In this document: one piece after another, positions 8,327 to 46,553 of the stretch
Position numbering within the stretch: the first letter of the stretch is position 1
Layout: the number at the start of each line of letters is the position of its first letter
Virus record (IMG/VR): IMGVR_UViG_3300020403_000009
Span: 1 to 59,415 of that record
Origin: a virus
Taxonomy: Duplodnaviria > Caudoviricetes
Length of the DNA: 59,415 nucleotides
Direction: 5' to 3' (one strand)
Position numbers and translations under genes: made by a program
Notes under the pieces: model-generated
Told to the model about the DNA's origin: nothing
Database searches by the model: none
Seen by the model: only the letters and a program-made list of their open reading frames with translations

Positions 8327-9227
8327 GATTAAAAATTGCAACTGAACAAGATGTACATATTTCTCCAAAAGCTTTTTGCATAACTTCTTGTCGCTTTTGT
8401 CCTGTCCAGATTTCTTTTAAAGTTTGTTTATTTAAATCTCCAAATACATAGTCCATATTGTAATCATTGCAACATAAAAAGACTTCACCTTTTGGTGTAA
8501 CATGAAGCCACTCTGTATCTCTCTTAGAAGAACATCCTACAACCTTACCTTCAGGCAAAGGATTCTCCATAACATCTTGCAATAATCCAGCCCTGTCAAT
8601 AAGATTCCATTGAGTCGTAACGCTTATACCTGGAAATAATTGCTTTGCTATTCTAGTTTGCGTTTCAAGTTCGTTCGGTTGCAGCTCTGGAAAATCTTTT
8701 AACTTGATAATATTAGACCTGTTATCAATACCATTAATTTGCAACAACAATATATTTTTATTTAATAGATTGTTTTGAGCATAATAAATGTTAGTAATTA
8801 ATGTTTCAAATAACTTCTCACGCATACCTGTTCTTTTTTCAAACAACTCTCTTTGGTATACTGGTGCGTTGATTGCTATTTGAGAAACCACTCCAGGATA
8901 TTTATTTATAAGGTCTATTTTATTTGGTGTGAGTGGGACACCATTAGTGAGTAAGCATAATGTAAGATTATGTTTTTGTAGCGTTTGCAACATTTGCTCA
9001 AAATATCTATACAATAAGACTTCGTTATAATGTGAAGCATATACAAAATGCAGTCTTGGACTTACAAGCTCGCCTTTTAAATCTACTATTTGTTTTATAA
9101 TAGATTCGTATAGCTCTGGTGGCATTTGGTTTTTATGTTCGCTTGGATTACCATGAATCGAAACTGGGCAGAACCAACATCCAGCATTGCATAATCCATT
9201 AGGGTCTATTTGTATAAAATTTATCAC
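8319..9227 (-). CDS. Radical SAM enzyme with SPASM/twitch domain
   Basis: CNAGCWFC (CxxxCxxC), LLTNG, and C-terminal C...G.VFLCC.D...GDL....L.EIW...CTSC. Confidence 0.9.
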   Translation of the reverse strand: MINFIQIDPNGLCNAGCWFCPVSIHGNPSEHKNQMPPELYESIIKQIVDLKGELVSPRLHFVYASHYNEVLLYRYFEQMLQTLQKHNLTLCLLTNGVPLTPNKIDLINKYPGVVSQIAINAPVYQRELFEKRTGMREKLFETLITNIYYAQNNLLNKNILLLQINGIDNRSNIIKLKDFPELQPNELETQTRIAKQLFPGISVTTQWNLIDRAGLLQDVMENPLPEGKVVGCSSKRDTEWLHVTPKGEVFLCCNDYNMDYVFGDLNKQTLKEIWTGQKRQEVMQKAFGEICTSCSVAIFNHE

Positions 9228-10366
9228 TTTATTTTATAGTGCATAAAAAAGTTTCTATAGTATGTTCCTTGAAAAGGTTCTGTTCTTCCGTGTTGGCACA
9301 AGGCAGATTCATAAAGTATCATATCTCCAGGCTCTGCATAAACCTTATACCACTCTCCATCATGTCCTTGAATATCTAAAGGCCAATCGTCTCCAAACTC
9401 TCGGCTTTGACATCCACACTTTAAATCTTTATCCACTATAATTATAGATGAAACATGATGAGTTTCTATTCTGTCTGTATGTTTTGAAAGGGTTGCTCCC
9501 CTTAAATACGACCTTATACCATACACGAATGTAGGCTCTATATCAACTCCTGCGAACTCTCGGTGTATCGGCAAAAGTTGATTGTGTATCATACTCCTTA
9601 TATGTGGTATATTGTCATACGACATTAATTGACTACCTCCTTGTATAAATGTTTCTTTGCCTGGAAAGTCTTCTTCTACAGTTCGGTCTTTTAATATATG
9701 GTATGAATCCTGAATAATACCCCATATATGCTCTGGTACTTTTACTACATCGAAACCAATATCAGTAAGCTTAGGTATATTAGGAACTACTTTGAGCGGA
9801 GCAGGTTTAGCCGCTCCCCATTCTCGCTCTCTCCACCACGATGTAATAATATATTTCTTGCCTGACGTTACTGGCATACCCTCGTGTATAGTGTCCTCTT
9901 GAGTTTGGCCATCTATCATGTTTTCCCAAGTTACAGCCTTCCCTGTCTCTGGCTGAGTTATGGTATTAAGCTTTGGAAAGTTAGTTCCACCACCCTCAAA
10001 GTCATCATTCAAATAAATCATCAAGGTGTGCGTTCTGTTTCCGCTATGCAAACAATGCTCATTATAAGCAGGACCGCTAAAAAAATCGTGATGAGGTTTA
10101 AAGTATTGACCTACTTCATAGAGCTGACCTTGAATGTTTTCACCTCTCTTTTCATCCAAACCTAGATGGTTTGCTATTTTTAAAAAAACACTTTTTACTA
10201 AGGGGTCGGTGTGACTTAAATTACAAGTGCTTGACGTTCGGCTTTTGTCATCTATAGAAGTTCCTCCAGAACCTGAAACCACTGTAGAAGGCTGGTGGTT
10301 TTTATCTATAATTTTAATTAATTCACTACACTCTTCTTGAGTGAGAAAATTCTGTATTTCAACCAT
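9224..10366 (-). CDS. Tandem 2OG-Fe(II) dioxygenase; N-terminal prolyl-4-hydroxylase-like domain plus a second 2OG domain
   Basis: Domain 1: NFLT.EEC, RTS, Y..GQYFKPHHD, R..T.MIYLND..EGGGT.FP, HEG.PV.SG.K. Domain 2: YGIRSY..GA.L..HTD...PGDMILYES...HGR. Confidence 0.9.
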   Translation of the reverse strand: MVEIQNFLTQEECSELIKIIDKNHQPSTVVSGSGGTSIDDKSRTSSTCNLSHTDPLVKSVFLKIANHLGLDEKRGENIQGQLYEVGQYFKPHHDFFSGPAYNEHCLHSGNRTHTLMIYLNDDFEGGGTNFPKLNTITQPETGKAVTWENMIDGQTQEDTIHEGMPVTSGKKYIITSWWREREWGAAKPAPLKVVPNIPKLTDIGFDVVKVPEHIWGIIQDSYHILKDRTVEEDFPGKETFIQGGSQLMSYDNIPHIRSMIHNQLLPIHREFAGVDIEPTFVYGIRSYLRGATLSKHTDRIETHHVSSIIIVDKDLKCGCQSREFGDDWPLDIQGHDGEWYKVYAEPGDMILYESALCQHGRTEPFQGTYYRNFFMHYKIK

Positions 10367-11206: not shown

Positions 11207-14200
11207 TTAACAATTTATAATTTGACTTGGCGCTCCTGTTGAAGAATTAAATCTTAACGCTACCCCACTTCCAGTTCCACAAGAAGCACCTTGATAATAC
11301 CACTTGCTACTTATAGAGTATTGCAGGTAGTCTATAACTTTTGTTTTCTTAGCCTTATCCATCCACACGACATCTGATGTAGTTACGCAAGTTGTGCTGC
11401 CATCATGATAATAGTTTTGAGTGGTTGCAGTAGGACCATTATTACACGCATCTGTATTAGTAGAGAACCAACTTTCAACTTCATTCATTGTAAACTCTTG
11501 AACACATAGTGAATAGTAAGAGCTGCCTTGAGCGTTTACAAGTCCACTCGCTCCAATATAAAGGTTTACACCTGGTGTTACGCTATTTGTCTGAGCAGCA
11601 CCATAGTATAATGGAAGACCCGTGCCTGAATCGCTTCCATCAAATGTGGTTGTTAATCCAATATCTGTATAAGCGATGACAGTATATCCGTTAGTGTAAG
11701 CAAAATCTAACTGCTCTGTATTTTGAATAAAGATATTTCCTCCGCCAGGATTATATATTAAGTAAACTGATATAGCGCTACTGACAGTGTATGTACAAGA
11801 AGTGCTTGTGCTTGATTCTCCTGATTGTTGTCCATTATTTAAGTACCAAGCCTGTGGTGTTGAACAAGCTCCGTCTTGAGTTACTGCGCCATTTGTATTA
11901 GTGGTAAGGTAATTCCCATAAGTTGTACCACACGGAGAATAGTAGTTACTATAAGCACCAGCATAAAGAGGTGTAAGTAAATCTACATCGGTAAATATGT
12001 TATCAGAAGTTGAAGCTTGCGCACAAGCAGTTGAGCCAGTATGGTAATATGTCGTAGTGGGTTTTCCAGGACCCCAAGCACAAACACTTCCCAAAGGTGC
12101 GTAGTTATCTGAAGTTATTTCTATTGCAGTTATACAAGAATCAAATAAATCGCTTCCAGTTGTAGTAACGAGCGTACCTGTCTGAGAAACATTTATTGTC
12201 ATACCTGTATCTACTGTACCTGCGCCGCCGCCAGAAGCTCTAATTCCAACCCATGGGGCTAAGCTGCTATTTGGTATGAATGCTGTAGTTCCTCCTGCAT
12301 CTGTCCAAGCATTTACTGTTCTTCCAGCTGTTGCTGCATCTCTAAGGTCTTGAGCTGTGGATATAGCACCAGTACTATCACTTAAATATAAAGTTCCTGT
12401 TGAAGGTATTTGAATATTTTGAGCGCATGAGTTAGAGCTTGAAGAATAACCATTTCCATACACCGCCATATTAGTTAACCATGCTCCAGTAGGAGTAGGA
12501 GTAGGTGTTGGAGTTGGAGTAGGAGTAGGAGTAGGCGTAGGCGTAGGCGTAGGCGTAGGCGTAGGTGTTGGAGTCGGAGTCGGAGTAGGTGTTGGAGTCG
12601 GAGTAGGAGTCGGTGTAGGAGTCGGTGTAGGACTAGGACTTGGTGTTGGTGTAATATTACACACACCAGCAGTATCAATATTAGAAACTGTACCTATATC
12701 CGTCATTCTAAATATTCCTTCACTAAGACCATACCCTTTATTAGGTTCTCTTACACCAAAGTAGTTGTCTCCTCCTTGGAATAATGTTGTTAAAGATGCG
12801 TCTGTATAAAACAATGTGCTACCAGTTGCAGTTGTAGCAAATGAACTGGATGCACTATAAATAGGTGTAGATGCAAATGGGCAAGTAGATGGACTTGTTG
12901 CGCTACCAGTACCAGGCTCAATCAACCATCTGTAAGATACAGGTGCTGGTGTCGGAGTTGGAGTTGGTGTCGGTGTTGGGAATGTGCAACCAGTACAAGC
13001 ATCTGATGTGCTGGTAGTAGAAAAACATAAGTTTGCACTAGATGGTTTTCTGTAATCCCATATTAAATACAAGAAACGCCCCCCTGCTGGCAACGTAAAG
13101 CTACCGCTAAATTGATTTGGATTGGTTTCACTTACAACTGTGGTATTGGCTGCTGCTGCCAACAAACTATTTATATCACTTCCATTATTACCGTAAAAAG
13201 TGTTTGTTCTTAAATATTTTAATTTATTTTTAGAGATATCAAAAACAAAATTGTCAAAATTTTGTTTTCTACTTATTATTGACACTATAGATGCATCTCC
13301 AGGTATAACTCCTGCGCCTTGGAATCCAGCTACAAAATTGTACTGAGATACTATTGGGTTTGTATTGCTTGAAGAAAACTGTATTCTTTCTGAATGCAGC
13401 GGAGATGTAAATGTTCCGTCAGTCCATCTGTACTGATTAGTAATAAACTGTCCAGCATCTGAATTACTTGTAACAGCTACATTATAAATTGTTATTTCTT
13501 GTGCCTGTGGGCATCCAGTTGTTATATCAATGGTATCTGAAGTAGTGCTATCTTGAGTAACACTAATTTCAACTGTAGTGGTATTAACACTGTTTTTGTT
13601 AAATGTCAAAGTGCCGCTCTGATTTACTGGGCCAGTGCTATGAGACACCCCGTTATATGTTGCTGTTATAGTGTAATTAGTTGTACTTGTTTGCGCTTCA
13701 AGAACCATTTCATCTGATAATGCTTCTGTTACAACATTTGAATTTGTTTCGGAAACTATATTAGTAAAACCACCATCAAAAGGTATTTCATAATCAATAT
13801 CAACCAGTCCTAATAAGTCACCAACATCTACACAATATGTAAATGTTGTATTAGGCTCTATTACGATGTTTTTTGCTGTATCACAAGGTAAACATTCATC
13901 GTCTGCTGGAGGTAATTGTACATTTGAATGCAACACATACTCATTCATGTATGGGTCAAACCCTCCTAGCTTTTGTGTTTGGAAAGTATCTATAAATAAA
14001 TCTCTAAACCACGAGCGCATACCTGCTTCTGATATAACTTGAAGCTGCTCGTTATTATACGCACCTCCAATTAGATTTATTACCGCTCCACGCTTGGCAT
14101 CAGTAAAATATTTATTAGGCCCATAGGATGCATAACTCTCTGGGTTTTCACTAATACCATATTCTTCTAATCTAGCTATCTGTGTTCCTAACACTTCTGG

Positions 14201-17200
14201 CACAGACGTTACTGCACCTCCTCCAGTAGCATCACTTAGTAAATTTTTACCTGCTAAAACATAAGATATTTTATCTTCTTGCAGGGTAAGAATATCTGTT
14301 TTTCTACCATCTAATAACTGTACAGGCCCATAAGACTCTTCTAATGGTTTAAAATTAGCTAGTCCTAGGTTGAACTCATTTAATTTATTTACGTTCGTTT
14401 CATCGTTATATACACCACTATAAGTCAAATCAGCAAATCTATGTTCCTGCTTATAGTCCATATTAGATGTAGATGTAACACGCTCTCCAAGATTTAATGT
14501 TTTGCCTGTTATAGAGTCTAACATCTTGTAGCTTTCTACACCATTTCCAAAAGTGTAACAGTTCGAAAACTCTGTATCAATAATTGCTGATTGACCAGAG
14601 GTTTGATTTTGCACATTACCACTATGCATACCATCTGTATCAACAGGAAAAGATAAATGGTTTTCATACCAAACATTTGATAAAGCATCAGTAGGCTGTG
14701 TTTCAAAAACAATTAAACTATCTGCTCTATAAATTTGTATATCAGCTGTTACTGTTGAACGTCTTTTTGCTCTTGATAATGTACCACTGCAACGAACCGT
14801 TCCAGTAATAAGTAAAGATAATTCTCCATCTCCACCAGCTGGAGCTGGTTCTCTATAAAACTTATAATAGTTAGTTCCCTCAGAAGTTGATATGTCTGTT
14901 TTTGTTGTAGCAGTCGCTGACTCATATGTATTCGTAATGCTTCCAGTATTACCTCCAACCTCAGTAACCGCTCGGTTTAAAACCTCCTCTACATTATCTC
15001 CATTCCACCAGTCCTGCATATTATTGTAAGTTCTAGAAGATATAAGTTCAACATCTAATTGACTTATTCTTCTTTCACATTTTCCGTTTCCTTGCCCTGG
15101 CCCTAATCTTTCTTGCCTTATTGACATTATAATCCTACTTCCAGAAGGAACATCATAATCTAAAAACTGACCAGGATTTGCTGGGTCAGCTAAATTCATA
15201 GGATATGCAAGAATAGGGTAATCGTTAGCAGTGTCTTGAATATCAGTTAATGAACCAGGTGTAACAATGTCATTATCTCCTCTTTCTGTAGCGAAATTAT
15301 TAGGATTAATTTTCATATATGTTCCAGCAGGCGATGTAATAGAAGCTCCTTGAGAATCAGTTAAAAAATCTGCTGACTTAGCCTCTTTTTCTAAAACTGT
15401 GGCCTCAACACACCTTAAAACTGGACCTGAACTGTCAGACTTCACAAAGTATCTATCTCCCTCCTCTACTTTATTTGCATTCTCTCCTTCTAATAAAAAG
15501 TAAGTAGCATTGCTACCTGGGTCTTTAAAATATATGTTTGAATAAATAGTATCATATGTAGACTCATATGGTTTTAATACAAATTTATACCTTGTTGCCC
15601 AACTTGGAGCTAACTGCTGAGTTGGAACAATTACTCTTATTTCATTTTTATTAATAGAGTTTTGACATGGTATCTCTACAGTATTATTTGGACTGACAAG
15701 AGCGGTAGATGAGCGTCCAAAACTATCCATATATACTATACCCACCTCATATCCTCTATTGCTATGTAAACTTCTTGGATTGTCAAGATTACTAAAAGAA
15801 GCAGTAGCTGTTATTATTTCATAAAATTCATAAGCATTATTAGCTCCATCTACATACTGCATAGCAGTAAGCTGAAGCCCAATAGTATTACTTGCTGGAG
15901 ATGCTATAATTTCAATAGGCTCTGCTGTTGCAGTAATACCGCTTGCAGTTTTTGTGTATGTTCCTAATGTAGAAGGAAGCGCACAATTAATACGGTCTGT
16001 TAATGTTGTTCCATTACAAGCATCAACAACAGGTTGTATATTTGATGCAGTACCAACCTTTTCAATAAAATCTGTGCTTGTAGCTAATGAATATACATTA
16101 TTAAAATCTACTGGTAATACATATTCAAACAATATATCAGTTGATGAGGTTGTGGCCGATGGAGTATTATCAGTAAACTGGCTATGAGTAATAGTAAAAT
16201 CTAAAGAAATAGTTGAGCCAGCAGTAAGTTCTAAAGTTGTTCCATTTTGATTTGATAAATCAAAGTATATAATAGAGTTGTTTACATTCACTGGCGTTGG
16301 ACCTATAGTATAGTATCCTGCTCCTCTAGTATCCACAAGCTCAGAAGTAGCAATTTCTGTGCTATTTAAATCTGCTTCAAACTCTAATTTTATATCATTA
16401 CCAAACTTATCTTTTAAATCATAGCCCTCTTTGTAGTTTCCATAAACAACTCTATTACCCATTACAGTTTGAGCTTTAGCTATAATAGGAACATTGTCAT
16501 ACAATCTTAGCAGTTCTGAGTCTGGTAATAAAGTAAATATCTTACTGTTATCAAACGTATAAGTATAATCTGTATCATTAGAGTATCCTAAATTGGATTT
16601 ATCTAAATACTCTATGACTTTAATATTGTTTGTGGTAGATTCTTTGAAAAGCAACTGAATACCCTCTACGAGCGAACCTCCTGAATTAAAAGTTATAATC
16701 GCCGCATTCTTAGTATTCCTCATTCCTTCATTCAAATAGCTATTATAGCTAAATGAAAAAGTTGAAGGATTAAAAGCATATTGACTAAACTGAGAAGTAG
16801 CTGAGTATTGATTGTCTGCATACTTATATCTATATGCAAAAGCAATAAAACGCTCCTCTAAGTAATCATCTTCTTGACCTACTACATTAAAAGTTTGAAT
16901 ACTTGGAGCGGATACTGGTGGCCTTTTTATTACCATCAATGATTCCGCCGTAAAACCATCAAGATTGTTAGTAGGAGATGAATATCTTCTATTTACATTT
17001 ATTACTCTTGGTGGATTAAGATTATCCGTAAAAAATAAAAGAGAGTTATCAATAAGATTAACTCCAGTAATTAAGTGATATGGGCTAAAGTTTAAAGTAG
17101 TATTTATACCACCTCCGTCATCAAGACTTATTATATGATATGTAGTCGAGTTGTCAGTAGTATTATAAGAAACAATTAAATCAAGCTTACTTGTGTTTCC

Positions 17201-17482
17201 TAAAGTAAAAGCTGGGTCGTGTATAAACCAATAAATAGTTTCATTAGCACCATCTTCATAAGCACCTATACATCTAGCGTTATTACTAAGCTCAACCCCG
17301 TCAAACATAATAGTTGTTAGCCCAGTATTACCTTTTGAGTTTTCTACCGAACCATATTCAGATTCCTCGGTAGAACCAAGTCTTACATTTAATGCGTCAA
17401 TATATTCACCATTTGGTAAAAGCCTTTCATCAAGGCTTTTATTCATACGGCCTCTTATAAAATTTCTTTGAATATTTGCCAT
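11207..17482 (-). CDS. Tail nozzle/stabilisation protein (N-terminal major part) with PT-repeat and repeated beta-module extension
   Basis: [22 protein letters not shown] start, [35 protein letters not shown] motifs of crAss-like stabilisation proteins; follows the ring genes. Confidence 0.75.
12488..12652 (-). repeat. Hexamer tandem repeat encoding (Pro-Thr)n
   Basis: GTAGGA/GTAGGC/GTCGGA/GTTGGA units; synonymous variation between units indicates selection on the protein. Confidence 0.95.
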
Positions 17483-21673: not shown

Positions 21674-22834
21674 TTACTTTCTTTTAATACTTCTAATTTT
21701 TAAGCCTCGTCCCGAATCAGGGTTAACTGACTTAACTTGAAATCCTCCTTTATTAGTCACTTCTGGTGCTTTACGCTCGCTCATATTTATATTTTTAGTT
21801 TTGCGTATCACATCTTCTGTGGCTTCAGACTTACCTTGCTCGTAAAAGAACTTGGCAAATTTGTCAGGATTCATTGCGATTGATAAAGCTCGATGGTATC
21901 CAGCAGCATCTTTAATCAAACCTTTATCATCCAAGTACTTATTAATAAAGTTCATTGGAGTTTCTTGGTTTTTCTTAATTGTCTGCGTATCACCTGGAGA
22001 GAAGGTTACTGTTTTGTCGTCAAGCACGAAATCAAAACCTTTGAAATCTTCAGTAAAAACTTTATCGGTTTCTTTTAAGAACCAATTACGTTTTGCCTCA
22101 CTTTCCTGTTGTTGAGTTTTAACAGATTCTAAGTATTGCCTATATTCTTGAAGCTCTTCATTGTTGCTCTGAGAATCAACAGCCGGTCTTGACTCAAGGG
22201 GCTGCTTGTATAATTCTTTTTGCTCATTAAAAAACTTCTTTGCTTTAGCAATAGCTTTTTTCTTTGCTAATTTAGTTTTCTTGATTACAGATTCATCATC
22301 CAGTTCTTCGTCATAAGAATAATCCTCCATTAAGGAATCAATATCTTCAGGGTCTAAACCTTCGCCTTCTGTAATTGTCAAATACTCTCTAAGCAAAGAG
22401 TCAGGATTCATAGCACTAAAGTCCCTCTGTAATTTTACATAGTCTTCAATACCTCTTCCTGTTTCTTTTTTATACTTAAAATAGGCTGCAACATCTTCTG
22501 GAAGCTCTTCAGCTTCTTCTCTAGCTGCATTTAATTCATCTAATGAATTAATTTCCCTACCGTATCTTTTACCAATATATGAAAGAACGTCTTGTTCAGA
22601 TAACTCGGCTGGCTCTTCAACCGACTCGGGTTTATCTTCAATTTTTTCTTCTTCTACTTTAGGAGTGTCGTTAACGACACTTTCCTCAGCAAAATCCATT
22701 TTTATCTGAGGAGTTTCTTCTGTTGTCTCAGAAGTTTCATTTAACTTCTCCTCATGCTTATCAAGAAGTTCTTGTTCAACCTCTTGCACTGATTTTTCTT
22801 CTACGGTATCTACCGCTCTTACTTTTAATTCCAT
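21674..22834 (-). CDS. Scaffold-like protein
   Basis: Very acidic helical protein between portal and capsid genes. Confidence 0.65.
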   Translation of the reverse strand: MELKVRAVDTVEEKSVQEVEQELLDKHEEKLNETSETTEETPQIKMDFAEESVVNDTPKVEEEKIEDKPESVEEPAELSEQDVLSYIGKRYGREINSLDELNAAREEAEELPEDVAAYFKYKKETGRGIEDYVKLQRDFSAMNPDSLLREYLTITEGEGLDPEDIDSLMEDYSYDEELDDESVIKKTKLAKKKAIAKAKKFFNEQKELYKQPLESRPAVDSQSNNEELQEYRQYLESVKTQQQESEAKRNWFLKETDKVFTEDFKGFDFVLDDKTVTFSPGDTQTIKKNQETPMNFINKYLDDKGLIKDAAGYHRALSIAMNPDKFAKFFYEQGKSEATEDVIRKTKNINMSERKAPEVTNKGGFQVKSVNPDSGRGLKIRSIKRK

Positions 22835-27821: not shown

Positions 27822-27927
27822 TTTGTTTTATTGCATTATCCAAGTGAGCTTCCTCCCAGTGTATTCTGTAATCATATCCACCAGTAAATGTTTTATCACA
27901 CTGACTACATTTTATAGTGTGTTTCAT
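27787..27927 (-). CDS. 46-aa C2H2 zinc-finger protein
   Basis: MKHTIKCSQCDKTFTGGYDYRIHWEEAH...; ATGA overlap with the upstream stop; fills the intergenic gap. Confidence 0.7.
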   Translation of the reverse strand: MKHTIKCSQCDKTFTGGYDYRIHWEEAHLDNAIKQNEIRGTQEENN

Positions 27928-28487
27928 AAAGACATAGTAATGTGGTGGTCATACATTCTATATAACTTTTGACCATCTACATAAAACTCATATTCAGTAT
28001 CTGGTCTATAAGTAACAAGGTCTCCCTCTTTTATACCGTAGTTTTTTAAAGTTTTATTTATGTATTTCATTTTACCCATGAGCGGCTCTTCTGCAAAAGG
28101 TTTATGAATATAAGATTCAGTAACTGGTACTGGCTCTACAAAACAATATCTATCATGACAATACCATTTATTGTTTTTGTTGTACATATAAAACTGCTCG
28201 TTATCTACAAAAAACAAATCATCCATAAAAAAACTCTTCCCGCTCTTTTGCCTTCCTTGCATATCATAATAATACTTAAATACATTATGATGTACTAAAA
28301 GTATATCTCCTGACTCTATCTCTCCATCATATCCTATTGGAGTAGAAACTACAATAGCCTCTCTGTTAGAAGCTATGTGATTTTCTTCTGAAGTGCTAGT
28401 TATAAAATCAACTCCACCTATATTCTTTGAGTTATTATATCTTTTACCCTTTATGGGTTTTACTATAAAGTAAAAAGGTGACCTCAT
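27924..28487 (-). CDS. Tandem GroES-like protein
   Basis: Two GroES-like halves (IESGDILLVHH; IKEGDLVTY...EFYVDGQKLYRM). Confidence 0.55.
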   Translation of the reverse strand: MRSPFYFIVKPIKGKRYNNSKNIGGVDFITSTSEENHIASNREAIVVSTPIGYDGEIESGDILLVHHNVFKYYYDMQGRQKSGKSFFMDDLFFVDNEQFYMYNKNNKWYCHDRYCFVEPVPVTESYIHKPFAEEPLMGKMKYINKTLKNYGIKEGDLVTYRPDTEYEFYVDGQKLYRMYDHHITMSL

Positions 28488-28742: not shown

Positions 28743-29165
28743 TTATTTGCCTGGAAGTTTTACCCCTATTTTATCTGCCGTTCTTGCGCCAAAATATCCG
28801 CAAAGTACCCATGTTAAAAGAGAGGCTGTATCTTCTGTAGGAAGTCCCATATACCATCCGCCTACATAAGCCAATACTAATACTGTTAAAGTTAAAGGTC
28901 TTACATTTCTAGCGAGCCAACTCTGACTTCCAGAGTCTGCCACCCAACGTCTAGTTACACCATCAATCTCTGCTCTTTCTAGTCTAAGTTTTTCAAGGGC
29001 AATAGCTTTATCACCTTCACTAAGTTCTGAGTTTCCTGATATAAGTTCAGATATAACATTACCAGGAAGTATAGCATCTCCTACTATTCCTAAAATAGAA
29101 GGGGCTTTCTCAATAAGAAACTTACCCACTCCAGTTTCTTTAAATGGTTTTTTACCTTTACTCAT
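28743..29165 (-). CDS. Holin-like membrane protein
   Basis: RW.AD..SWLARNVRP, transmembrane segments, YFGAR; next to the endolysin. Confidence 0.7.
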   Translation of the reverse strand: MSKGKKPFKETGVGKFLIEKAPSILGIVGDAILPGNVISELISGNSELSEGDKAIALEKLRLERAEIDGVTRRWVADSGSQSWLARNVRPLTLTVLVLAYVGGWYMGLPTEDTASLLTWVLCGYFGARTADKIGVKLPGK

Positions 29166-37691: not shown

Positions 37692-37783
37692 TGGTTTTTA
37701 AATATTTCGTACCACCACTTAACAATAATATACTTTAAAAGCTCCCAACAAAATATTCCCGCTATTATCTCTTCCCAACTCAT
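37688..37783 (-). CDS. 31-aa membrane peptide
   Basis: MSWEEIIAGIFCWELLKYIIVKWWYEIFKNQ; ATGA-coupled to both groEL and groES. Confidence 0.55.
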   Translation of the reverse strand: MSWEEIIAGIFCWELLKYIIVKWWYEIFKNQ

Positions 37784-39405
37784 TTTTGCTCATAGCTTCG
37801 TGCCATAGTAACTATAGCGTTAGTAGATAAAATTGTTATAGCTACCGATACAGCATTTTGTAGTGCGCTCTTAGTTACTTTCATTGGGTCTATAATTCCC
37901 ATTTTGTACATATCACCATGCACTCCGTTCTTTACATCATAACCTCTATTTGGTAGATGGCTTTCGTTGTTATTGATATTATATATATCATCTAAATATA
38001 ATCCTGCATTCGAAAGAATTTGAGATATTGGCGCGCGAAGCGCGTCCGCCAAAATTGCGCAAGCAATTTTTTTCGATTCTGAATATTTAAAGTATGTGGC
38101 CATGTCATGATAATATAAGTAATAATCATACAACGCCAGTCCTCCACCAGGAAGTATACCTTCTAATAAAGCCGAGCGCACCGCACAGACAGCGTCATCA
38201 ACTCTGTCATAAAGCTCTTTCTGCTCTAGGTCGGTGTTACCGCCAACATATATAACACCTATTCCGCCTGTAAGCGATGCAATTCTCGACAATATAAAAT
38301 CCTTATCTGGCTTCTTGTTGGCAAGGTCATGAGCCTCCCACAATTGATTAACCCGCTCATGAACTTTATCTTCGGTTTCTTTATTATCTTTTATTACTAT
38401 AGTAGAATCTTTTCCTACAATAACCTTAGCCGCATGGCCGAGGTCTTTAAACTCCACGATACTCAAATCGTCTCCTGTCTTCTCTGAAAAATAAGTAGCA
38501 CCAACTGTCAGGGCAATGTCCTGCATAAGTTCATGTTGTTTGTAACCAAAGGAGGGTGGAGTTATGTTACAAATTTTCAAGTTGTTCTTCATCACATTCG
38601 CCGCAAGGGTGTTTATGACGTTTGTAGAACAAGGCGCTACTATTAATATTTTTTTTCCTTCTTGGATAATTGGCTTGAGTACGTTCTCTATCGTGAGCAG
38701 GTTTGTTATCTCCGCATCCGATACAAGTATATGCACATCCTCCAGTATACACTCATCCTTCTTCTGATTATTTACAAACAAGTTCGAGCTATACCCTCTA
38801 TCTATCTTGAGTCCATCAGTGGTCTCACTATAAGTATCTGAAGTCTGAGACCGCTCCACTGTCACAATCCCATTCTCTCCAACCTTATTATAAGTGTCGG
38901 CAATAATTTTACCAATAGTAGCATCGTTGTTGGCGGATATAGTCGCCACATCAGTCAGCATCTTCTTAGTAACCTTTCGACTATTCTTCTTTAATTTCTT
39001 TATAAGCTCTTTCGTCACAGATAAAAGTTCACGCAATATTTCAGTCTTATTATGCTCTTCTTTTATTAACTCCATACCCGAGCGTACTAACGCCTCTGTC
39101 AGTACTATCGCTGTAGTAGTACCATCACCCGCAAGGGTCGCCGTTCGGTCAGCCGCCTCACGCATCATGCGTACCGCTAAATTTTCTACTGGGTCTATAA
39201 GACTAATAGACTTTGCTACAGTAACACCATCCTTAGTCACAGTAATACCATGCGTATGCTCTGGTGATTCTATAATAACAGTATTACCCATTGGACCTAG
39301 CGTACTCTTTACAGCATCAGCCATCTTGGTTATACCTCTAATAAGTTTTGACTGCCCCTCCTTAGCAAAGTGTAACTCCTTTGGTGTGTATCCTCCTTGT
39401 TCCAT
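37780..39405 (-). CDS. groEL: Chaperonin GroEL (phage type)
   Basis: VKSTLGP.G, TKDGVTVAK, AGDGTTT, DRGY, GILPGGG, IIDP.KV; no GGM tail. Confidence 0.97.
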   Translation of the reverse strand: MEQGGYTPKELHFAKEGQSKLIRGITKMADAVKSTLGPMGNTVIIESPEHTHGITVTKDGVTVAKSISLIDPVENLAVRMMREAADRTATLAGDGTTTAIVLTEALVRSGMELIKEEHNKTEILRELLSVTKELIKKLKKNSRKVTKKMLTDVATISANNDATIGKIIADTYNKVGENGIVTVERSQTSDTYSETTDGLKIDRGYSSNLFVNNQKKDECILEDVHILVSDAEITNLLTIENVLKPIIQEGKKILIVAPCSTNVINTLAANVMKNNLKICNITPPSFGYKQHELMQDIALTVGATYFSEKTGDDLSIVEFKDLGHAAKVIVGKDSTIVIKDNKETEDKVHERVNQLWEAHDLANKKPDKDFILSRIASLTGGIGVIYVGGNTDLEQKELYDRVDDAVCAVRSALLEGILPGGGLALYDYYLYYHDMATYFKYSESKKIACAILADALRAPISQILSNAGLYLDDIYNINNNESHLPNRGYDVKNGVHGDMYKMGIIDPMKVTKSALQNAVSVAITILSTNAIVTMARSYEQK

Positions 39406-40509: not shown

Positions 40510-41181
40510 ATGAGAAATCTACTAGAAATTGAGACAGGGCTACTAAGCTCGGATGTAGTCAAACAAGGGCTACAATTGACTAAGGTTAAATCCTTACAGA
40601 AATCTATCAAGACTGCTGAACGTACTAAATTCAGAAAATCTTTAGAGATGGCTACCTTGATGAGACAAGGTAAAGAATGGTTTGATAAGCCTGAGACACA
40701 ATTACTATTTGCTGAGCAAGGTATTGTATGGACAATTGATGAATTAGCTGATAAAGTATTCGAATTATCAAAATCAAGAATGTACAGATGCATCAAGGCT
40801 AGTAACGTAGCTGAGGATGTGGTCCAAATCTTCGAAAACCAATGTAAGCATTTGCAGGATGCAGGAGAAAAGGTAGAAATATCTATTGATGCATTAAACC
40901 AATTTGCTAAGGCTTATGCTGAGGATGAAGATGTGAACGTAGCTGATTTACAAGCTACTTCTGATAGTGTCGTTAACGACACTACTGCTGATGATAGTGT
41001 CAATGAGGATACTACTGAGGATGCTACTGAGACTACTAGCGATACCATTTTTACTTTGTCTTTCAAACGTGATAGTGGTAACGTGTCTGTACGATACAGT
41101 CATAGCGAAGGATTAGTTACTACCAATAGTGCTGATGATATCCGTAGTGCAATAGCATTTCTAACTGAACAATTACAATAA
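40510..41181 (+). CDS. First early gene; hypothetical with possible HTH and acidic linker
   Basis: WTIDELADKVFELSKSRMYRCIK; D/E/T-rich linker. Confidence 0.75.
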   Translation: MRNLLEIETGLLSSDVVKQGLQLTKVKSLQKSIKTAERTKFRKSLEMATLMRQGKEWFDKPETQLLFAEQGIVWTIDELADKVFELSKSRMYRCIKASNVAEDVVQIFENQCKHLQDAGEKVEISIDALNQFAKAYAEDEDVNVADLQATSDSVVNDTTADDSVNEDTTEDATETTSDTIFTLSFKRDSGNVSVRYSHSEGLVTTNSADDIRSAIAFLTEQLQ

Positions 41182-41202
41182 CCTAAAATAACTTCAAACA
41201 TT

Positions 41203-42123
41203 ATGAAAAAAGGTATAACATATACAGTAACAGGAGAACAGTCACGTTCTCGCATGAATAGTTACCATGGCAAACCTAGTGTACTAGACCATAGCTATGG
41301 TGCTACTGAGATTGATGTGAAGAACATCAAATCCAAAGTACTAGACCAATCTGGAATTTCAGTTGTACTAGGTCGTAGAACAAGGATAGCTAACTATCGC
41401 AGTAAGTACACTATTGGATTCGAGATTGAGAAATCTACATTTGGTAGAGGACAACGTAAGGAGTACGCTCTAATCCAAGGCTACGAGCGTGATGGTAGTT
41501 GTGGTGTGGAGGCTGTGACTAACATACTACCTTTACTTCCTCCTAGCCAATGGAGGAATAAAATCTTCGATATGATTTTTAAAGCCAAGGGTATTATGGA
41601 TGATGATAAAAGTCCAAGTACAATGCGATGTGGTGGTCACATCACTATTGGTGTGAATGGTTTGTGTGGACAAGAGTTAAACGAGAAAGTTAGACTCAAT
41701 GCATCTATCTTACTAGCCTTATTCCGTAAGAGACTAAAGAATGGGTATGTGCGAAACAACCTACGGATGCAACCATATGCTGACAACAATGGAGAGAGAC
41801 TATCTCATTTCAATGGATGGGATAGAAAGTATCAAATCGCGTTAGCTAAGAATAACTGCCTAGAGTTTAGAGTACCTAATCGTATTACTAGCTACAAGCA
41901 GATGTTCAGAAGATACGAACTGATGTATCAGATTGTTGATTTCAGCATCACTAAACCCAATGGTAGATTCAGTACTTTACTCAATAAGGTAAAGCCTACT
42001 ATCCTCTCTATGTACGAGGGAGATACTACCAAGACTGATATGATACTAAGCCTTGCGAAAGACTTCTACAAGTTTGTCAAGGATGGTACAATATCTAATA
42101 GCATCGAGGAGTTTATCCGATGA
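41203..42123 (+). CDS. Amidoligase (COOH-NH2 ligase, Amidoligase_2-like)
   Basis: IGFEIE, DGS..VE.VT, CGGHI, LEFR motifs. Confidence 0.75.
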   Translation: MKKGITYTVTGEQSRSRMNSYHGKPSVLDHSYGATEIDVKNIKSKVLDQSGISVVLGRRTRIANYRSKYTIGFEIEKSTFGRGQRKEYALIQGYERDGSCGVEAVTNILPLLPPSQWRNKIFDMIFKAKGIMDDDKSPSTMRCGGHITIGVNGLCGQELNEKVRLNASILLALFRKRLKNGYVRNNLRMQPYADNNGERLSHFNGWDRKYQIALAKNNCLEFRVPNRITSYKQMFRRYELMYQIVDFSITKPNGRFSTLLNKVKPTILSMYEGDTTKTDMILSLAKDFYKFVKDGTISNSIEEFIR

Positions 42124-42133
42124 TGTAAGCAAA

Positions 42134-42160
42134 GGGTGGTGTCCATTGTGGACACTATCC
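42134..42160 (+). other. RNA hairpin directly 5' of the ribozyme
   Basis: GGGTGGTGTCCA-TTG-TGGACACTATCC; 12 bp with two G-U pairs and no U tail. Confidence 0.75.
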
Positions 42161-42211
42161 TCTGTCCATAGGTGTGTGCCTATGCTGATGAGACTAAAAG
42201 GTCGAAACAGA
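42161..42211 (+). ncRNA. Hammerhead ribozyme, type III
   Basis: Stem III TCTGT/ACAGA, GUC cleavage triplet (after 42166), stem I CATAGG/CCTATG, CTGATGA core, stem II GAC/GTC, GAAA. Confidence 0.9.
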
Positions 42212-42234
42212 AACATTAATTTAAATTAAATATT

Positions 42235-42417
42235 ATGAGTGTAAACTACGAATGTAAATATGCAGAACGAGATAAAAAAAGAAGAGAGATAGCACAAGAA
42301 CGTGCTGAAGAACTTATAGATAATCTCAATGAGGAGATGAGAAGTAAAGCCTATTCTGAATCAGAACAGATAGCAATACTTAGTCAAATCAAATCTATTT
42401 TTAACAAATATTATTAA
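42235..42417 (+). CDS. Hypothetical protein
   Basis: ORF track; A/T-rich leader. Confidence 0.7.
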   Translation: MSVNYECKYAERDKKRREIAQERAEELIDNLNEEMRSKAYSESEQIAILSQIKSIFNKYY

Positions 42418-42421
42418 TACT

Positions 42422-42742
42422 ATGACACAGTTAGATTTAACCGAAAGACTGACACGAAAAAAGTACTCAGTCTATGCGTACACTAATGTGTACCTTAACG
42501 ATGGATTCATAGCCTTTGCTGATAGCCTAGGCATAGGATTCCTTAAACGCACTCGAAAGGGTGTTAGAACTACTGCCAATGGCAGAGTGAGATGGTATCA
42601 TACCAACGACAATGCGATACAATCGGCTCTCACCAGCGTGAGAAAGAACTATGGCATATCAATTCCCAGCAATGGCTGGAATAAAGTGAAGGTCAAGCAT
42701 TATAACTTGACTGATGTTGAACAGTTAATCCCATTACTATGA
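42422..42742 (+). CDS. Hypothetical protein
   Basis: ORF track. Confidence 0.7.
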   Translation: MTQLDLTERLTRKKYSVYAYTNVYLNDGFIAFADSLGIGFLKRTRKGVRTTANGRVRWYHTNDNAIQSALTSVRKNYGISIPSNGWNKVKVKHYNLTDVEQLIPLL

Positions 42743-42870
42743 GCAGTAAAGCTAGATGGGAACGAGCAATTACCCTGCAAAAAAAGTGGGGTAAATTGTC
42801 TCGACAGGTAGAAAAAGAGACAGGGCAAAAAACTAACCTGTTGATAAATAATAACTTGAATAATAAATAA
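42739..42870 (+). CDS. Hypothetical protein (43 aa)
   Basis: MSSKARWERAITLQKKWG...; ATGA-coupled. Confidence 0.55.
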   Translation: MSSKARWERAITLQKKWGKLSRQVEKETGQKTNLLINNNLNNK

Positions 42871-42891
42871 TTTATATAACTTGCAAAACCT

Positions 42892-43101
42892 ATGGAACTA
42901 AACAAAAAAACGCTAGATGCAAAGCTAAAGCAGATAGCACAATTCGAAGAGACTTATGGAAGTGACCATGGACAGACTAGCGTTCATGCCATGAAGAAAT
43001 TTTGTACCGATGAAAAATACAGAAAGCGTGTACGAGATTTCAATAAATCGATAGCTGAAACATTCCGGACTTATCGATTTAAAACTCCTTATAACGATTA
43101 G
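42892..43101 (+). CDS. Hypothetical protein
   Basis: ORF track. Confidence 0.7.
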   Translation: MELNKKTLDAKLKQIAQFEETYGSDHGQTSVHAMKKFCTDEKYRKRVRDFNKSIAETFRTYRFKTPYND

Positions 43102-43131
43102 GATTAAAATCGTTTAACTAAACTATATATT

Positions 43132-43407
43132 ATGAATTTTGAAACTGATTATTTAGCCAACAAAATCGAGGACAAACAACTCCAAGATTTATTAATCAAA
43201 TCAAGAAAGAAAGTGAACGGAAAAACTTATGTAAGACCTGTTCATTACCAAGGCAGAACCTATTGGAATGTAGGTCAAGCCATAAACGAAGAGAAAGCGA
43301 GAACATCAGACACAACCATTCTAAAGATGGGTGCAATAATGATGGGAGTACAGATGACACTAATGATAGGGTTATATGTAGTAGCAAGGTATTTGGGATT
43401 ATCCTGA
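43132..43407 (+). CDS. C-terminally anchored membrane protein
   Basis: Hydrophobic C-terminus. Confidence 0.7.
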   Translation: MNFETDYLANKIEDKQLQDLLIKSRKKVNGKTYVRPVHYQGRTYWNVGQAINEEKARTSDTTILKMGAIMMGVQMTLMIGLYVVARYLGLS

Positions 43408-43433
43408 TGTTTTGTTTTGTTTTTTTAGTGATG

Positions 43434-43460
43434 GGGAGGCAGAAATGTCTCCCTTTTTTT
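43434..43460 (+). terminator. Intrinsic terminator, copy 1
   Basis: GGGAGGCA-GAAA-TGTCTCCC-T7. Confidence 0.9.
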
Positions 43461-43467
43461 ATGCGAT

Positions 43468-43511
43468 AGTGTCGCCAACGACACTCACAATAGTGTCGTC
43501 ACAACGACACT
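43468..43511. promoter_or_regulatory. Two tandem AGTGTCG-N4/6-CGACACT palindromic sites
   Basis: Between terminator and promoter; further copies at 2139, 22664 and 40966. Confidence 0.75.
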
Positions 43512-43529
43512 CAAAAAACACAAAATAAA

Positions 43530-43561
43530 TTTGGTTATGTGCGAATAATGTGTTATCTTTG
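43530..43561 (+). promoter_or_regulatory. Bacteroidota sigma-A promoter
   Basis: TTTG-N20-TATCTTTG. Confidence 0.85.
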
Positions 43562-43615: not shown

Positions 43616-44668
43616 ATGTGTATTATTATTATCAAACAAAAGACCAATGCCATTCCAATGGACATCCTCAAGAACTCAGCGAGGATTAATCCCCACGGAC
43701 TAGGCATTGTTTGGTTAGATACCTATAAGGTATCGTACCACAAATCAAAAGAGTATAAACTTCTAAACACAGACAGACCATTCATTGCACACTTTAGGTA
43801 TGCAACTGTTGGTGCAATAAACAGAGACAACACACATCCATTTGTATGTGGTAACAACTCTGATGAACTGCTGATGATGAACGGAACTATCAAGGGACTT
43901 GGCAATGACAAGATGTGTGATAGTAAGGTACTAGCTAACAAGCTAGGACTTGTGCCGAGACAGACTTGGAAAAAATCACTAGCCAAGTATGATTGTCGAT
44001 TCGTTACAATCAATACTAGAACTCGTTCGTTTCAGATTTACAACAAGCATCTCTACACTCACAGAGATGGAGTATGGTATTCCAAGACCAACGTACTACA
44101 AGACAATCTTGTAGCAGTCTACGGAACTCTAAAGAAAGGATACTCAAACTACCAACGCTATCTTAGAACTTCAAACCACATCGCTAGTGGTGTGACTGCT
44201 AACAAATATCCTCTTGTTATCAAAGGACTTCCGTATCTCATCGAGAGAGAGGGTAAGGGATACAATGTAGAGGTAGATATCTTTAGTGTATCAAACGATA
44301 CGCTAAGAGATTTAGACAGTCTTGAGGGACATCCCAACTTCTACGAGCGAAAGCAGACAGAGATTCTTGCCAAGGGTAAGCGATACACTTGTTGGATATA
44401 CTTCAACCGAACTCATACGAGCGAGGGAGAGGTATACCACGAGTCATATAGTCAAGCACCATTACGCTCATACCTATTCGAAAGAGAGGAAGAGGTATTG
44501 CCATCTTGCAATCAGTTTAGCTTTGATGATGTGCCATTGGAGGATGAGTCTCCAATATGCATAGATTGTTTCCACGACCTAGAGTATGATGGATTCAACA
44601 ACTACCATTGCACAGGATGTGATGGATGGTTTACAGAAAACGATGTTACACACTTTAATAAATTTTAA
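43616..44668 (+). CDS. Class II glutamine amidotransferase fused to gamma-glutamylcyclotransferase and a Zn ribbon
   Basis: MC start, NPHG.G, HFRYAT.G...NTHPF, NG, DS; VYGTLKKG..N, LD.LEG..FYER; CIDC...CTGC. Confidence 0.88.
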   Translation: MCIIIIKQKTNAIPMDILKNSARINPHGLGIVWLDTYKVSYHKSKEYKLLNTDRPFIAHFRYATVGAINRDNTHPFVCGNNSDELLMMNGTIKGLGNDKMCDSKVLANKLGLVPRQTWKKSLAKYDCRFVTINTRTRSFQIYNKHLYTHRDGVWYSKTNVLQDNLVAVYGTLKKGYSNYQRYLRTSNHIASGVTANKYPLVIKGLPYLIEREGKGYNVEVDIFSVSNDTLRDLDSLEGHPNFYERKQTEILAKGKRYTCWIYFNRTHTSEGEVYHESYSQAPLRSYLFEREEEVLPSCNQFSFDDVPLEDESPICIDCFHDLEYDGFNNYHCTGCDGWFTENDVTHFNKF

Positions 44669-45540: not shown

Positions 45541-45590
45541 TTACATTAGCATAAATAAGAGTGTTCATAAAGTTTGAAGTTAATTAATTA

Positions 45591-45619
45591 GGGAGGCAGA
45601 AATGTCTCCCTTTTTTTTT
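45591..45619 (+). terminator. Intrinsic terminator, copy 2
   Basis: Stem-loop identical to copy 1, plus T9. Confidence 0.9.
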
Positions 45620-45628
45620 GCATAAAAG

Positions 45629-45660
45629 TTTGGTGGTGTGCAGAAGATGTGTTACCTTTG
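45629..45660 (+). promoter_or_regulatory. Bacteroidota sigma-A promoter
   Basis: TTTG-N20-TACCTTTG. Confidence 0.85.
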
Positions 45661-46153: not shown

Positions 46154-46553
46154 TGAACTACATGATGTTTACGAACAAGCAGTAGAAGACCATGCAACTA
46201 CAAACCTTGATGGTAATGAATACGATGCGAGGATGTCTTATGGAATCAAAATAGTACGAAACCACAACGACAACACAGTACAGATATTTAATACTGCGAG
46301 AGGTGGAGACTACTACAAAGAACTAGATGAGGATGAGTATAATATCTTCTTTGAGTTTGGGTGGGTAGTAGGTGTCTGTAAGATGACACTTAAAAAATAT
46401 AAGGAGAGACTTGATACTGTTGAAGAAAAAATGAAAAACGAAATCAATGGTAGAAACAACTCCAAGTATATTTCTTTCTTAAAAGAAACAAGAAAGGTAA
46501 CCTTAAATAAATATTATAAAATAACTCAAAAATTAAATCAACATGAAAACTAA
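46146..46553 (+). CDS. Hypothetical protein
   Basis: ORF track; start probably 46146. Confidence 0.7.
   Translation: MYNELHDVYEQAVEDHATTNLDGNEYDARMSYGIKIVRNHNDNTVQIFNTARGGDYYKELDEDEYNIFFEFGWVVGVCKMTLKKYKERLDTVEEKMKNEINGRNNSKYISFLKETRKVTLNKYYKITQKLNQHEN

Follow-up and report, generated by a model that had tools for sequence, protein, structure and literature searches.

The DNA analysed here (hereafter the window) is the IMG/VR record IMGVR_UViG_3300020403_000009, a viral sequence of 59,415 bp that is about 98% complete and has a G+C content of 35.7%. Between two genes on its plus strand, it carries a type III hammerhead ribozyme (42161-42211), which is directly preceded by a 12-bp hairpin (42134-42160). 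We consider the identity of this element as a genuine type III hammerhead practically certain. According to our main reading, the ribozyme belongs to an intercistronic cassette that is conserved in marine Flavobacteriia podophages, and it would cut the operon transcript in which it is embedded. We assign a probability of roughly 0.72 to this reading, and a role of the cassette in self-cleaving intercistronic processing appears likely to us.

All parts of the hammerhead can be located on the sequence. The 5' strand of stem III (UCUGU, 42161-42165) forms 5 bp with its 3' strand (ACAGA, 42207-42211) and is followed by C17 (C42166). The NUH triplet consists of G42164, U42165 and C42166 (GUC), the scissile bond is predicted between C42166 and C42167, and A42207 and U42165 form the A15.1-U16.1 pair. 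Stem I (CAUAGG/CCUAUG, 42167-42172 and 42179-42184) involves 6 bp, a possible additional U.G pair and the loop UGUGUG. The core strand CUGAUGA (C3-A9, 42185-42191), which was assigned from the sequence and from the alignment to the Rfam model RF00008, is followed by stem II (GACU/GGUC, 42192-42195 and 42200-42203; three Watson-Crick pairs, one U.G pair and the loop AAAA) and by the core GAA (G12-A14, 42204-42206). Stems I and II are loop-closed, stem III is open, and RF00008 was aligned over its full length (model positions 1-54). A preliminary description of this region had proposed a complete type III hammerhead with core and three stems, and each of its coordinates and distances proved to be correct on the sequence. 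This includes the spacing, which is 38 nt from the upstream stop codon to the hammerhead and 23 nt from there to the ATG at 42235. The latter 23 nt (42212-42234) constitute an A/U-rich leader.

A search with a hammerhead model, a check named in the preliminary description, was carried out; RF00008 matched positions 42159-42213 with 38.6 bits. The corresponding E-values were 3.3e-7 for a stretch of 251 nt, 2.2e-5 for the 16.7-kb plus arm of the genome and 1.8e-8 for the per-genome search. A model built from the relatives scored 74.5 bits on the hammerhead of the window. When Rfam was run on the complete 59-kb window, the hammerhead was missed with the gathering threshold as well as with E up to 0.05; scans of stretches of up to 17 kb or the per-genome search recovered it. 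The blanks of the whole-window scans are probably due to speed filters and, because of these blanks, routine annotation would overlook this abundant subfamily. When the folding energy was calculated, the 101-nt region reached -36.4 kcal/mol (z -5.05) and none of 200 shuffled sequences was as stable. For the 54-nt hammerhead alone, the z-score was -1.71 and 12 of 200 shuffles were as stable, which is not exceptional. Thus, the stability of the 101-nt region comes mostly from the hairpin.

The hammerhead is widely conserved in related viruses. A protein search with the product of the upstream gene yielded two viral contigs (L002 and L003; 85% and 49% amino acid identity), both of which carry a hammerhead at the same place (41.9 and 32.0 bits with RF00008). 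Compensatory changes were found in all three stems of both contigs, and their upstream hairpins differ in sequence. An exact-pattern scan for the core, in which the stem II positions were left free, matched at least 124 stretches of viral contigs. Among the matches listed (130), 117 parse as type III hammerheads and 106 of them are unique. The cleavage triplet of these 106 relatives is GUC in 83, GUA in 20 and GUU in three cases. From the same listed matches, we aligned 90 unique cores of fixed geometry with duplicates collapsed (alignment A1). Fourteen matches with at most four of the six stem I pairs (type I topology and odd cases) were left out; stem I was partly pre-selected in this way (at least 5/6 pairs), stems II and III were not. 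Standard pairs were observed in 90.1% of the cells of this alignment, compared with 63.5% after shuffling and 30-43% (maximum 42.8%) with slid partners. Both sides change in 14 of the 18 pairs, and the observed covariation score was reached by none of 500 shuffles. Although the search pattern had left stem II free, this stem is 100% paired in the 90 sequences. Two-sided changes were seen in six of the seven stem I pairs, and stem III covaries at the 16.3/15.3 and 16.5/15.5 pairs. In loop I, the U is invariant, and conservation reaches at least 90% at each of the two G positions.

With a profile built for the upstream protein (A2), 80 loci were obtained without recourse to any RNA pattern. The covariance model derived from alignment A1 had 99 matches in these loci, all of them on the gene strand. 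Conservation in relatives was another check put forward in the preliminary description, and it can be seen that the hammerhead starts 10-59 nt past the stop codon of the upstream gene in 66 of 79 loci, these being the loci of the 80 in which the end of the gene could be located. In 31 of the 80 loci, a pair of hammerheads is present within 3.3 kb. Covariation of the stems, which had been suggested for examination as well, was evaluated with 83 unique protein-anchored sequences fitted to the covariance model (alignment A3). Here, 96.4% of the cells are paired versus 72.2% after shuffling, and two-sided changes were observed for 13 of the 16 pairs. The core strand of the protein-anchored set is invariant except for position 7, and loop I (U-G-N-G-U) and loop II (NAAA) are both conserved. 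These conserved loop sequences fit a candidate tertiary contact between loops I and II, a type of contact on which rapid cleavage by hammerheads at physiological Mg2+ depends.

A hammerhead of the same subfamily was also found in a cultured phage. It is located, unannotated, at 28911-28968 (minus strand) of the Flavobacterium phage vB_FspP_elemoE_10-3D (MT497078.1; elemoE in the following) and has the core CUGAAGA and the cleavage site GUA (39.5 bits, E 9.9e-10 with model R1). Its location is a divergent intergenic region, shortly ahead of a small annotated gene that is the first of its operon, and no obvious hairpin accompanies it. A candidate hammerhead in the nearest named relative (MW202828.1) was not counted (15.3 bits, E 0.039 with model R1).

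The order of the cassette and its distances to the flanking genes are conserved. After the stop codon come 6-9 nt, then the hairpin and the hammerhead, and finally about 23 nt up to the ATG. Most of the 49 orthologous modules with a hairpin have 6-9 nt between it and the stop codon, and the distance from the hammerhead to the ATG has a median of 23 nt (quartiles 20 and 26; 99 of 102 modules among the matches listed). The upstream cistron of the window (41203-42123, plus strand) encodes a protein of 306 amino acids and ends with TGA. The preliminary description had called this gene an amidoligase. Its ESM-Atlas neighbours (0.95-0.96) involve PF12224 in 12-61% of their members and one structural neighbour reaches the naming threshold, so that the feature and structure neighbours of the Atlas point to PF12224. 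On the other hand, we obtained no Pfam family at E<=0.01 and none that was relevant at E<=1, no PHROG match and no PDB profile match below E 0.79, and none of the 565 homologues of the protein carries a Pfam domain. The name is therefore kept as a lead only and we refer to the gene as amidoligase-like. The same 306-residue family precedes the hammerhead in 28 of 95 pattern-found modules among the matches listed.

The downstream side of the cassette is much more variable. In the window, it is followed by an open reading frame (ORF) of 60 amino acids (42235-42417, plus strand), the first of four small genes before a terminator, and this ORF varies in the relatives. Among the matches listed, the downstream genes of 98 pattern-found modules fall into 70 clusters. 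For the 60 small proteins (34-103 amino acids) encoded behind the amidoligase-like gene, 29 clusters were obtained, and in 12 of 60 loci this small ORF is immediately succeeded by another hammerhead. A contig of run X15, which represents a 90-95% identical relative, joins position 42225 to 42421 with four other letters between and is without the 60-residue ORF, and the contig of another relative diverges from the window at 42222. The combination of a conserved upstream gene, a variable downstream gene and contig breaks at 42222 and 42225 indicates that the ribozyme marks the border to swap-prone small genes.

The hairpin of the window (42134-42160, plus strand) begins after a 10-nt spacer from the TGA and abuts stem III. 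Its arms (GGGUGGUGUCCA and UGGACACUAUCC) form 12 bp, including two G.U pairs, around the loop UUG (42146-42148) and contain the core GUGUC...GACAC. A 12-bp hairpin without a U tract directly upstream of the ribozyme had been reported in the preliminary description and is borne out by the sequence, in which the next letters are CCUCUGUC. An intrinsic terminator was considered at this place and rejected, since the U tract is missing and the hairpin is not among the terminator-like sites of the window, the real ones of which carry T7-T8. T7-type sites for ribonuclease (RNase) III have a long double-stranded stem that spans about two turns of the helix and, as a rule, contains an internal loop. 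The hairpin was rejected as such a site because its stem measures only 12 bp.

When the hairpin position was compared between the modules, we found a hairpin of at least 6 bp abutting stem III in 75 of 102 unique modules among the matches listed, compared with 113 of 1158 controls (9.8%), for which other positions in the same loci were used. Among the same matches, the minimum free energy of the upstream sequence is -10 kcal/mol or lower in 74.5% of the modules and in 6.4% of the controls. The stems of these hairpins contain 55 G.U versus 17 A.C pairs, 13 of their loops are UUCG and six are GAAA, and the 8 nt past the hairpin involve only one to three T in 71 of 75 modules. The excess of G.U pairs, the few T after the stem and the T7-T8 tracts of the true terminators indicate that the hairpin is a sense-strand RNA structure and not a terminator. 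In the orthologous slot (60 unique modules), a hairpin is present in 49 and the GUGUC...GACAC core in 37 modules. Across the wider hammerhead family, unrelated stable hairpins, some of them with UUCG or GAAA loops, occupy the same slot. Whether the hairpin acts as 3'-end stabiliser of the upstream product appears evenly balanced to us. A generic structural role (3'-end block, folding insulation or both) fits all hairpin cases.

The best indirect evidence for cutting as the selected function comes from relatives in which the hammerhead is replaced. Among the 79 syntenic loci, 13 are without a hammerhead. Eight of them carry a minihelix, two a variant T-arm-like hairpin, two the GUGUC hairpin only and one a DUF805b-like element. 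In the eight loci, GGTTCGAnTCC is part of a minihelix of acceptor stem and T-arm with a short GG-containing linker and no anticodon arm. Altogether, 19 minihelices with the T-loop UUCGAnU were found in 13 loci, all on the gene strand and either in the slot itself or at neighbouring gene junctions (L144, 2100-2175; L162, 2082-2150; L168, 2100-2150; L171, 2073-2120; L173, 2120-2195; L175, 2090-2140; three copies in L179, two in L191, and others). Most of them have a GUGUC hairpin before and a start codon after them. The minihelices were considered as tRNAs and rejected, since ARAGORN reported no tRNA in the 13 hammerhead-less loci and Rfam no match of the tRNA clan there. By analogy, they are likely substrates of host tRNA-processing enzymes (putative cleavage by RNase P and RNase Z). 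The replacement of the hammerhead by such a likely substrate argues that cutting of the transcript would be the selected function. In the window, ARAGORN found 0 tRNAs and the sole match of the T-arm motif is at chance level. The DUF805b RNA (L213, 2120-2152, plus strand; 39.3 bits, gathering cut-off 35.6) follows directly past the amidoligase-like stop codon. In another relative without a hammerhead (L176), a twister-P3 ribozyme (1095-1172, plus strand; 61.8 bits, gathering cut-off 39.9) is located just upstream of the amidoligase-like gene.

From these data, the following sequence of events can be proposed. While the plus-arm operon is being transcribed, folding would start with the 12-bp hairpin and with stems I and II, and synthesis of the 3' strand of stem III (42207-42211) would complete the ribozyme, which would then cut itself after C42166. 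The upstream RNA would comprise two cistrons including the amidoligase-like gene and would end with the hairpin plus 6 nt and a 2',3'-cyclic phosphate. The downstream RNA would extend to the terminator at 43433-43454 and comprise the four small variable genes. Its 5'-OH would sit on the folded ribozyme body, and between this body and the ATG would lie the standard A/U-rich leader, which is unstructured and about 23 nt long. As a net effect, the two halves of the operon would be uncoupled in stability and translation, and any downstream gene would gain a context-independent leader. What we infer from sequence comparison comprises in vivo cleavage, stabilisation by the hairpin and any effect on expression.

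Processing of polycistronic RNA is known from other systems. In the early genes of coliphage T7, RNase III cleaves between the cistrons and the upstream product keeps a stabilising 3'-terminal stem. By analogy, the cassette would share with these sites an intercistronic cut of early phage mRNA and an upstream product with a 3'-terminal stem. In contrast to T7, a self-cut without a host enzyme is predicted here, and 12 bp are too short a hairpin for a typical substrate of RNase III. The ends would also differ, as a 2',3'-cyclic phosphate and a 5'-OH are predicted for the hammerhead, whereas RNase III of T7 leaves a 3'-OH and a 5'-phosphate. Organellar transcripts are punctuated by tRNAs and t-elements, and acceptor/T-arm structures are model substrates of RNase P. 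The minihelices of the relatives would give the same kind of punctuation via host tRNA-processing enzymes; unlike the hammerhead, this applies to the relatives only, as the window is without such an element. The synthetic insulator RiboJ carries an extra hairpin downstream of its ribozyme. RiboJ (PMC6206723) resembles the cassette in that a hammerhead and a hairpin just upstream of the translation start provide a standardised 5' untranslated region. However, RiboJ is engineered, and the hairpin of our cassette is located upstream and would stay with the 5' product. Judging from excerpts of two papers (PMC2839356, PMC4122927), the PeSL of T4-type phages are regulatory cassettes that occur repeatedly and border small, hypervariable early genes, as is seen here. 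They consist of a promoter and a terminator-like stem-loop and act in transcription and recombination, whereas the present cassette includes a ribozyme and displays covariation at the RNA level.

Intergenic hammerheads of phages and prophages were described in 2011 (Perreault et al., PMC3088659) and, according to the passages of this paper considered here, cleave native polycistronic RNAs in vitro. For a haloarchaeal phage, a transcript 5' end within 3 nt of the hammerhead site is given in the same passages. The relevant sections of a 2019 review (PMC6765202) treat the processing of polycistronic RNA with differential stability as proposed and not established, and the role of most bacterial and phage hammerheads as still open. 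Compared with the parts of PMC3088659 on which we draw, our hammerhead has the same core, GUC site, topology and location between genes of a phage polycistronic unit, and the multiple hammerheads that flank single small genes in the relatives recall the tandem arrangements of that paper. In contrast to RF00008 and to the hammerheads of PMC3088659, the present subfamily has short stems and combines loop I U-G-N-G-U with loop II NAAA. It also differs from the latter, as far as the same parts of that paper go, in its fixed arrangement, in which a hairpin directly adjoins the ribozyme upstream and the ATG comes about 23 nt after it. In these passages, the word terminator does not occur, and where hairpin is used, it refers to loop closure or to a different class of ribozyme. 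Our literature searches found neither the hairpin-hammerhead-leader layout nor the minihelix swap, the supplementary alignments of PMC3088659, which lay outside the search and may include members of the subfamily, not being covered; no paper combining hammerhead and Flavobacterium phage was found either. Thus, the type of element is already known in phages and its tightly conserved layout is apparently undescribed.

Several observations weigh against the transcript-cutting cassette. In the nearest-neighbour model, the hammerhead fold (-32.4 kcal/mol) is 4 kcal/mol less stable than an alternative fold (-36.4 kcal/mol) in which CUG of the core is paired with the stem III sequence CAG; these energies take no account of tertiary structure in the hammerhead core. 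Contigs of RNA libraries span 42166/42167 uncut (X15 record 4, 41647-42210; X16 record 11, 41966-42203), where it should be considered that such contigs may stem from DNA and cannot report RNA ends. Among the four RNA-library runs compared, X15 and X16 contain mostly 90-95% identical relatives, and X17 and X18 two contigs each with at least 99% identity. A 5'-OH is not stabilising in all bacteria, and the product of the glmS ribozyme is degraded by RNase J1 in Bacillus. In the minihelix loci L171, L179 and L191, the hairpin comes after and not before the cleavage element. Moreover, the RF00008 score of 38.6 bits is lower than the Rfam gathering cut-off of 48.5. We read this as a poor fit of RF00008 to the short-stemmed phage subfamily, since the core, the cleavage triplet, the three helices and the compensatory changes are all present. 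One could also think of a chance or decayed hammerhead-like motif, as RF00008 has sub-threshold matches (E up to 1) in three of 14 control genomes, none of them above the cut-off, and the 54-nt fold is unexceptional. However, the E-value of 1.8e-8 per genome, the intact core and the 66 of 79 syntenic loci with covariation contradict such an origin, and the idea that the hairpin is simply an intrinsic terminator conflicts with its lack of a U tract when compared with the T7-T8 of the phage's own terminators. We regard both of these explanations as extremely improbable.

The hairpin motif raises further objections. GTGTC-N(2-9)-GACAC occurs seven times in the window (2140-2155, 22665-22680, 40967-40982, 42139-42155, 43469-43484, 43493-43510, 46372-46389) versus 0.21 expected, and none of 100 shuffles reaches seven copies. 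Three of these copies lie inside ORFs, and those at 43469 and 43493 have a terminator on one side and a promoter-like motif on the other. With a T6 run behind it, the copy at 2140 is terminator-like; at 22665 and 40967, one and the same perfect palindrome of 18 nt is found within ORFs, where it encodes SVVNDT in both cases. Three relatives have 8, 7 and 14 copies, compared with 0-1 for the backwards control. The 14 copies of MW202828.1 are one identical 16-mer, and eight of them are intergenic. Five of these eight begin 4 nt past an annotated stop codon without a ribozyme and end 18-40 nt before the next start. Since it belongs to a repeated palindrome family, the hairpin may exceed a passive protective stem. 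Judged by the repeated copies, including the ribozyme-free post-stop positions of MW202828.1, the GUGUC hairpin is a default punctuation mark in this lineage, and it may be read by a protein. One may go further and assume that the hairpin mainly serves sequence-specific recognition or punctuation in this phage lineage, either as an RNA or DNA site bound by a protein or as a signal to a phage polymerase or nuclease. The hammerhead would then be an optional addition at some junctions, and 3' protection would be incidental. The palindrome counts and the presence of the core in 37 of 60 orthologous modules are in line with this view, but unrelated stable hairpins with UUCG or GAAA loops take the same orthologous slot, so that structure and not sequence is kept across the wider family. 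The G.U over A.C ratio (55:17) agrees better with a stem in the sense-strand RNA than with an operator in double-stranded DNA, and elemoE has a hammerhead and no copy of the motif. Taken together, we consider this explanation rather unlikely. A somewhat more tenable alternative, which we still do not favour, makes the downstream gene the main beneficiary. The cassette would then be a natural insulator like RiboJ; it would strip off the upstream RNA together with translating ribosomes and provide a hypervariable set of small genes with a uniform leader and 5' structure, and stabilisation of the upstream RNA would be secondary. The tight distance between hammerhead and ATG, the constancy of the cassette in front of diverse genes (70 clusters in 98 modules, 29 among 60 proteins) and the hairpin-less elemoE hammerhead ahead of the first gene of an operon in a divergent region agree with this possibility, as does the higher expression of RiboJ-insulated genes reported in PMC6206723. 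However, the hairpin is on the upstream side and its distance to the stop codon is equally tight, which suggests that the upstream product has a function as well. Finally, the cassette might mainly be a recombination joint for swapping small early genes, comparable to the PeSL as they appear in the excerpts of PMC2839356 and PMC4122927, with RNA cleavage being secondary or vestigial. The contrast between the conserved upstream and the variable downstream gene, the second hammerhead straight after the first small ORF (12 of 60 loci) and the contigs that diverge at 42222 or join 42225 to 42421 would be explained in this way. The compensatory changes in all stems and the invariant catalytic nucleotides indicate, however, selection on the RNA fold and not merely on DNA homology, and the cassette sequences of different phages are too divergent for good homology arms. 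A mere recombination joint is therefore improbable in our opinion.

The preliminary description had placed the hammerhead in an early operon. The structural, packaging and lysis genes of the window were identified by PHROG matches on the minus strand (2.5-39.4 kb), and genes for a ParB-like protein, an exonuclease, a primase/helicase and a helicase on the plus strand (46-53 kb). The plus arm (39.7-56 kb) diverges from the structural/lysis arm, and the hammerhead lies about 2 kb into it. The label early is inferred from layout and gene content, that is, from the ParB-like, exonuclease, primase and helicase genes sharing an arm that is divergent from the structural/lysis arm. The transcription unit of the hammerhead probably ends at an intrinsic terminator at 43433-43454 (plus strand; 9-bp stem and T7 tract), which is followed by a promoter-like motif (TTTG-N20-TAnnTTTG, 43530-43561). 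A terminator-like site with a T7-T8 tract, as at 43433-43454, is also present at 45590-45611. The stretches 43433-43561 and 45590-45660 are near-identical units of terminator and promoter-like motif, which split the plus arm into transcription units; in both, a GGGAGGCAGAAATGTCTCCCT stem with a T7-T8 tract is followed by TTTGG-N-TGTGC-N-TGTGTTAYCTTTG. A scan for sigma-70 promoters was uninformative (37 sites versus 29.1 expected). The Bacteroidetes-type promoter motif had nine matches versus 3.66 expected (three of 100 shuffles equal this), and we used only the two sites that follow terminators.

Among the other genes of the window are those for GroEL (37780-39405, minus strand; PHROG E 2.6e-135), a GroES-like protein (27924-28487, minus strand), a protein joining 2OG-Fe(II) oxygenase-like and ferrochelatase-like parts (9224-10366, minus strand) and a virion protein of 2091 amino acids (11207-17482, minus strand). 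A GATase-GGACT fusion gene (43616-44668) is located downstream of the hammerhead, and genes of this type are common partners of amidoligase genes in phages. The closest cultured relatives according to the primase are Flavobacterium podophages of the genus Elemovirus. A DNA similarity search with 41200-43200 against 50,697 phage records gave no match. The window stretch was detected in runs of 11 studies, most of them labelled marine; the RNA rows make up a small share and no habitat inference was drawn from them.

In a wider sense, and only tentatively, marine Flavobacteriia podophages may use an interchangeable punctuation code between early genes. Past the stop codon, such a code would involve the GUGUC hairpin together with a hammerhead, a minihelix cut by RNase P or RNase Z, or nothing, then a leader of about 20 nt and the ATG. 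It would cut and stabilise the transcript and serve as a joint for gene exchange, and the hairpin would be read by a dedicated protein of phage or host. The combination of the Rfam cut-off and the speed filters misses an abundant subfamily, for which one exact pattern matched at least 124 stretches of viral contigs. This lineage constitutes a clean comparative case, with one conserved junction, a fixed geometry, a natural replacement by minihelices and the cultured relative elemoE, and this makes the hypothesis that the ribozyme uncouples the cistrons directly testable.

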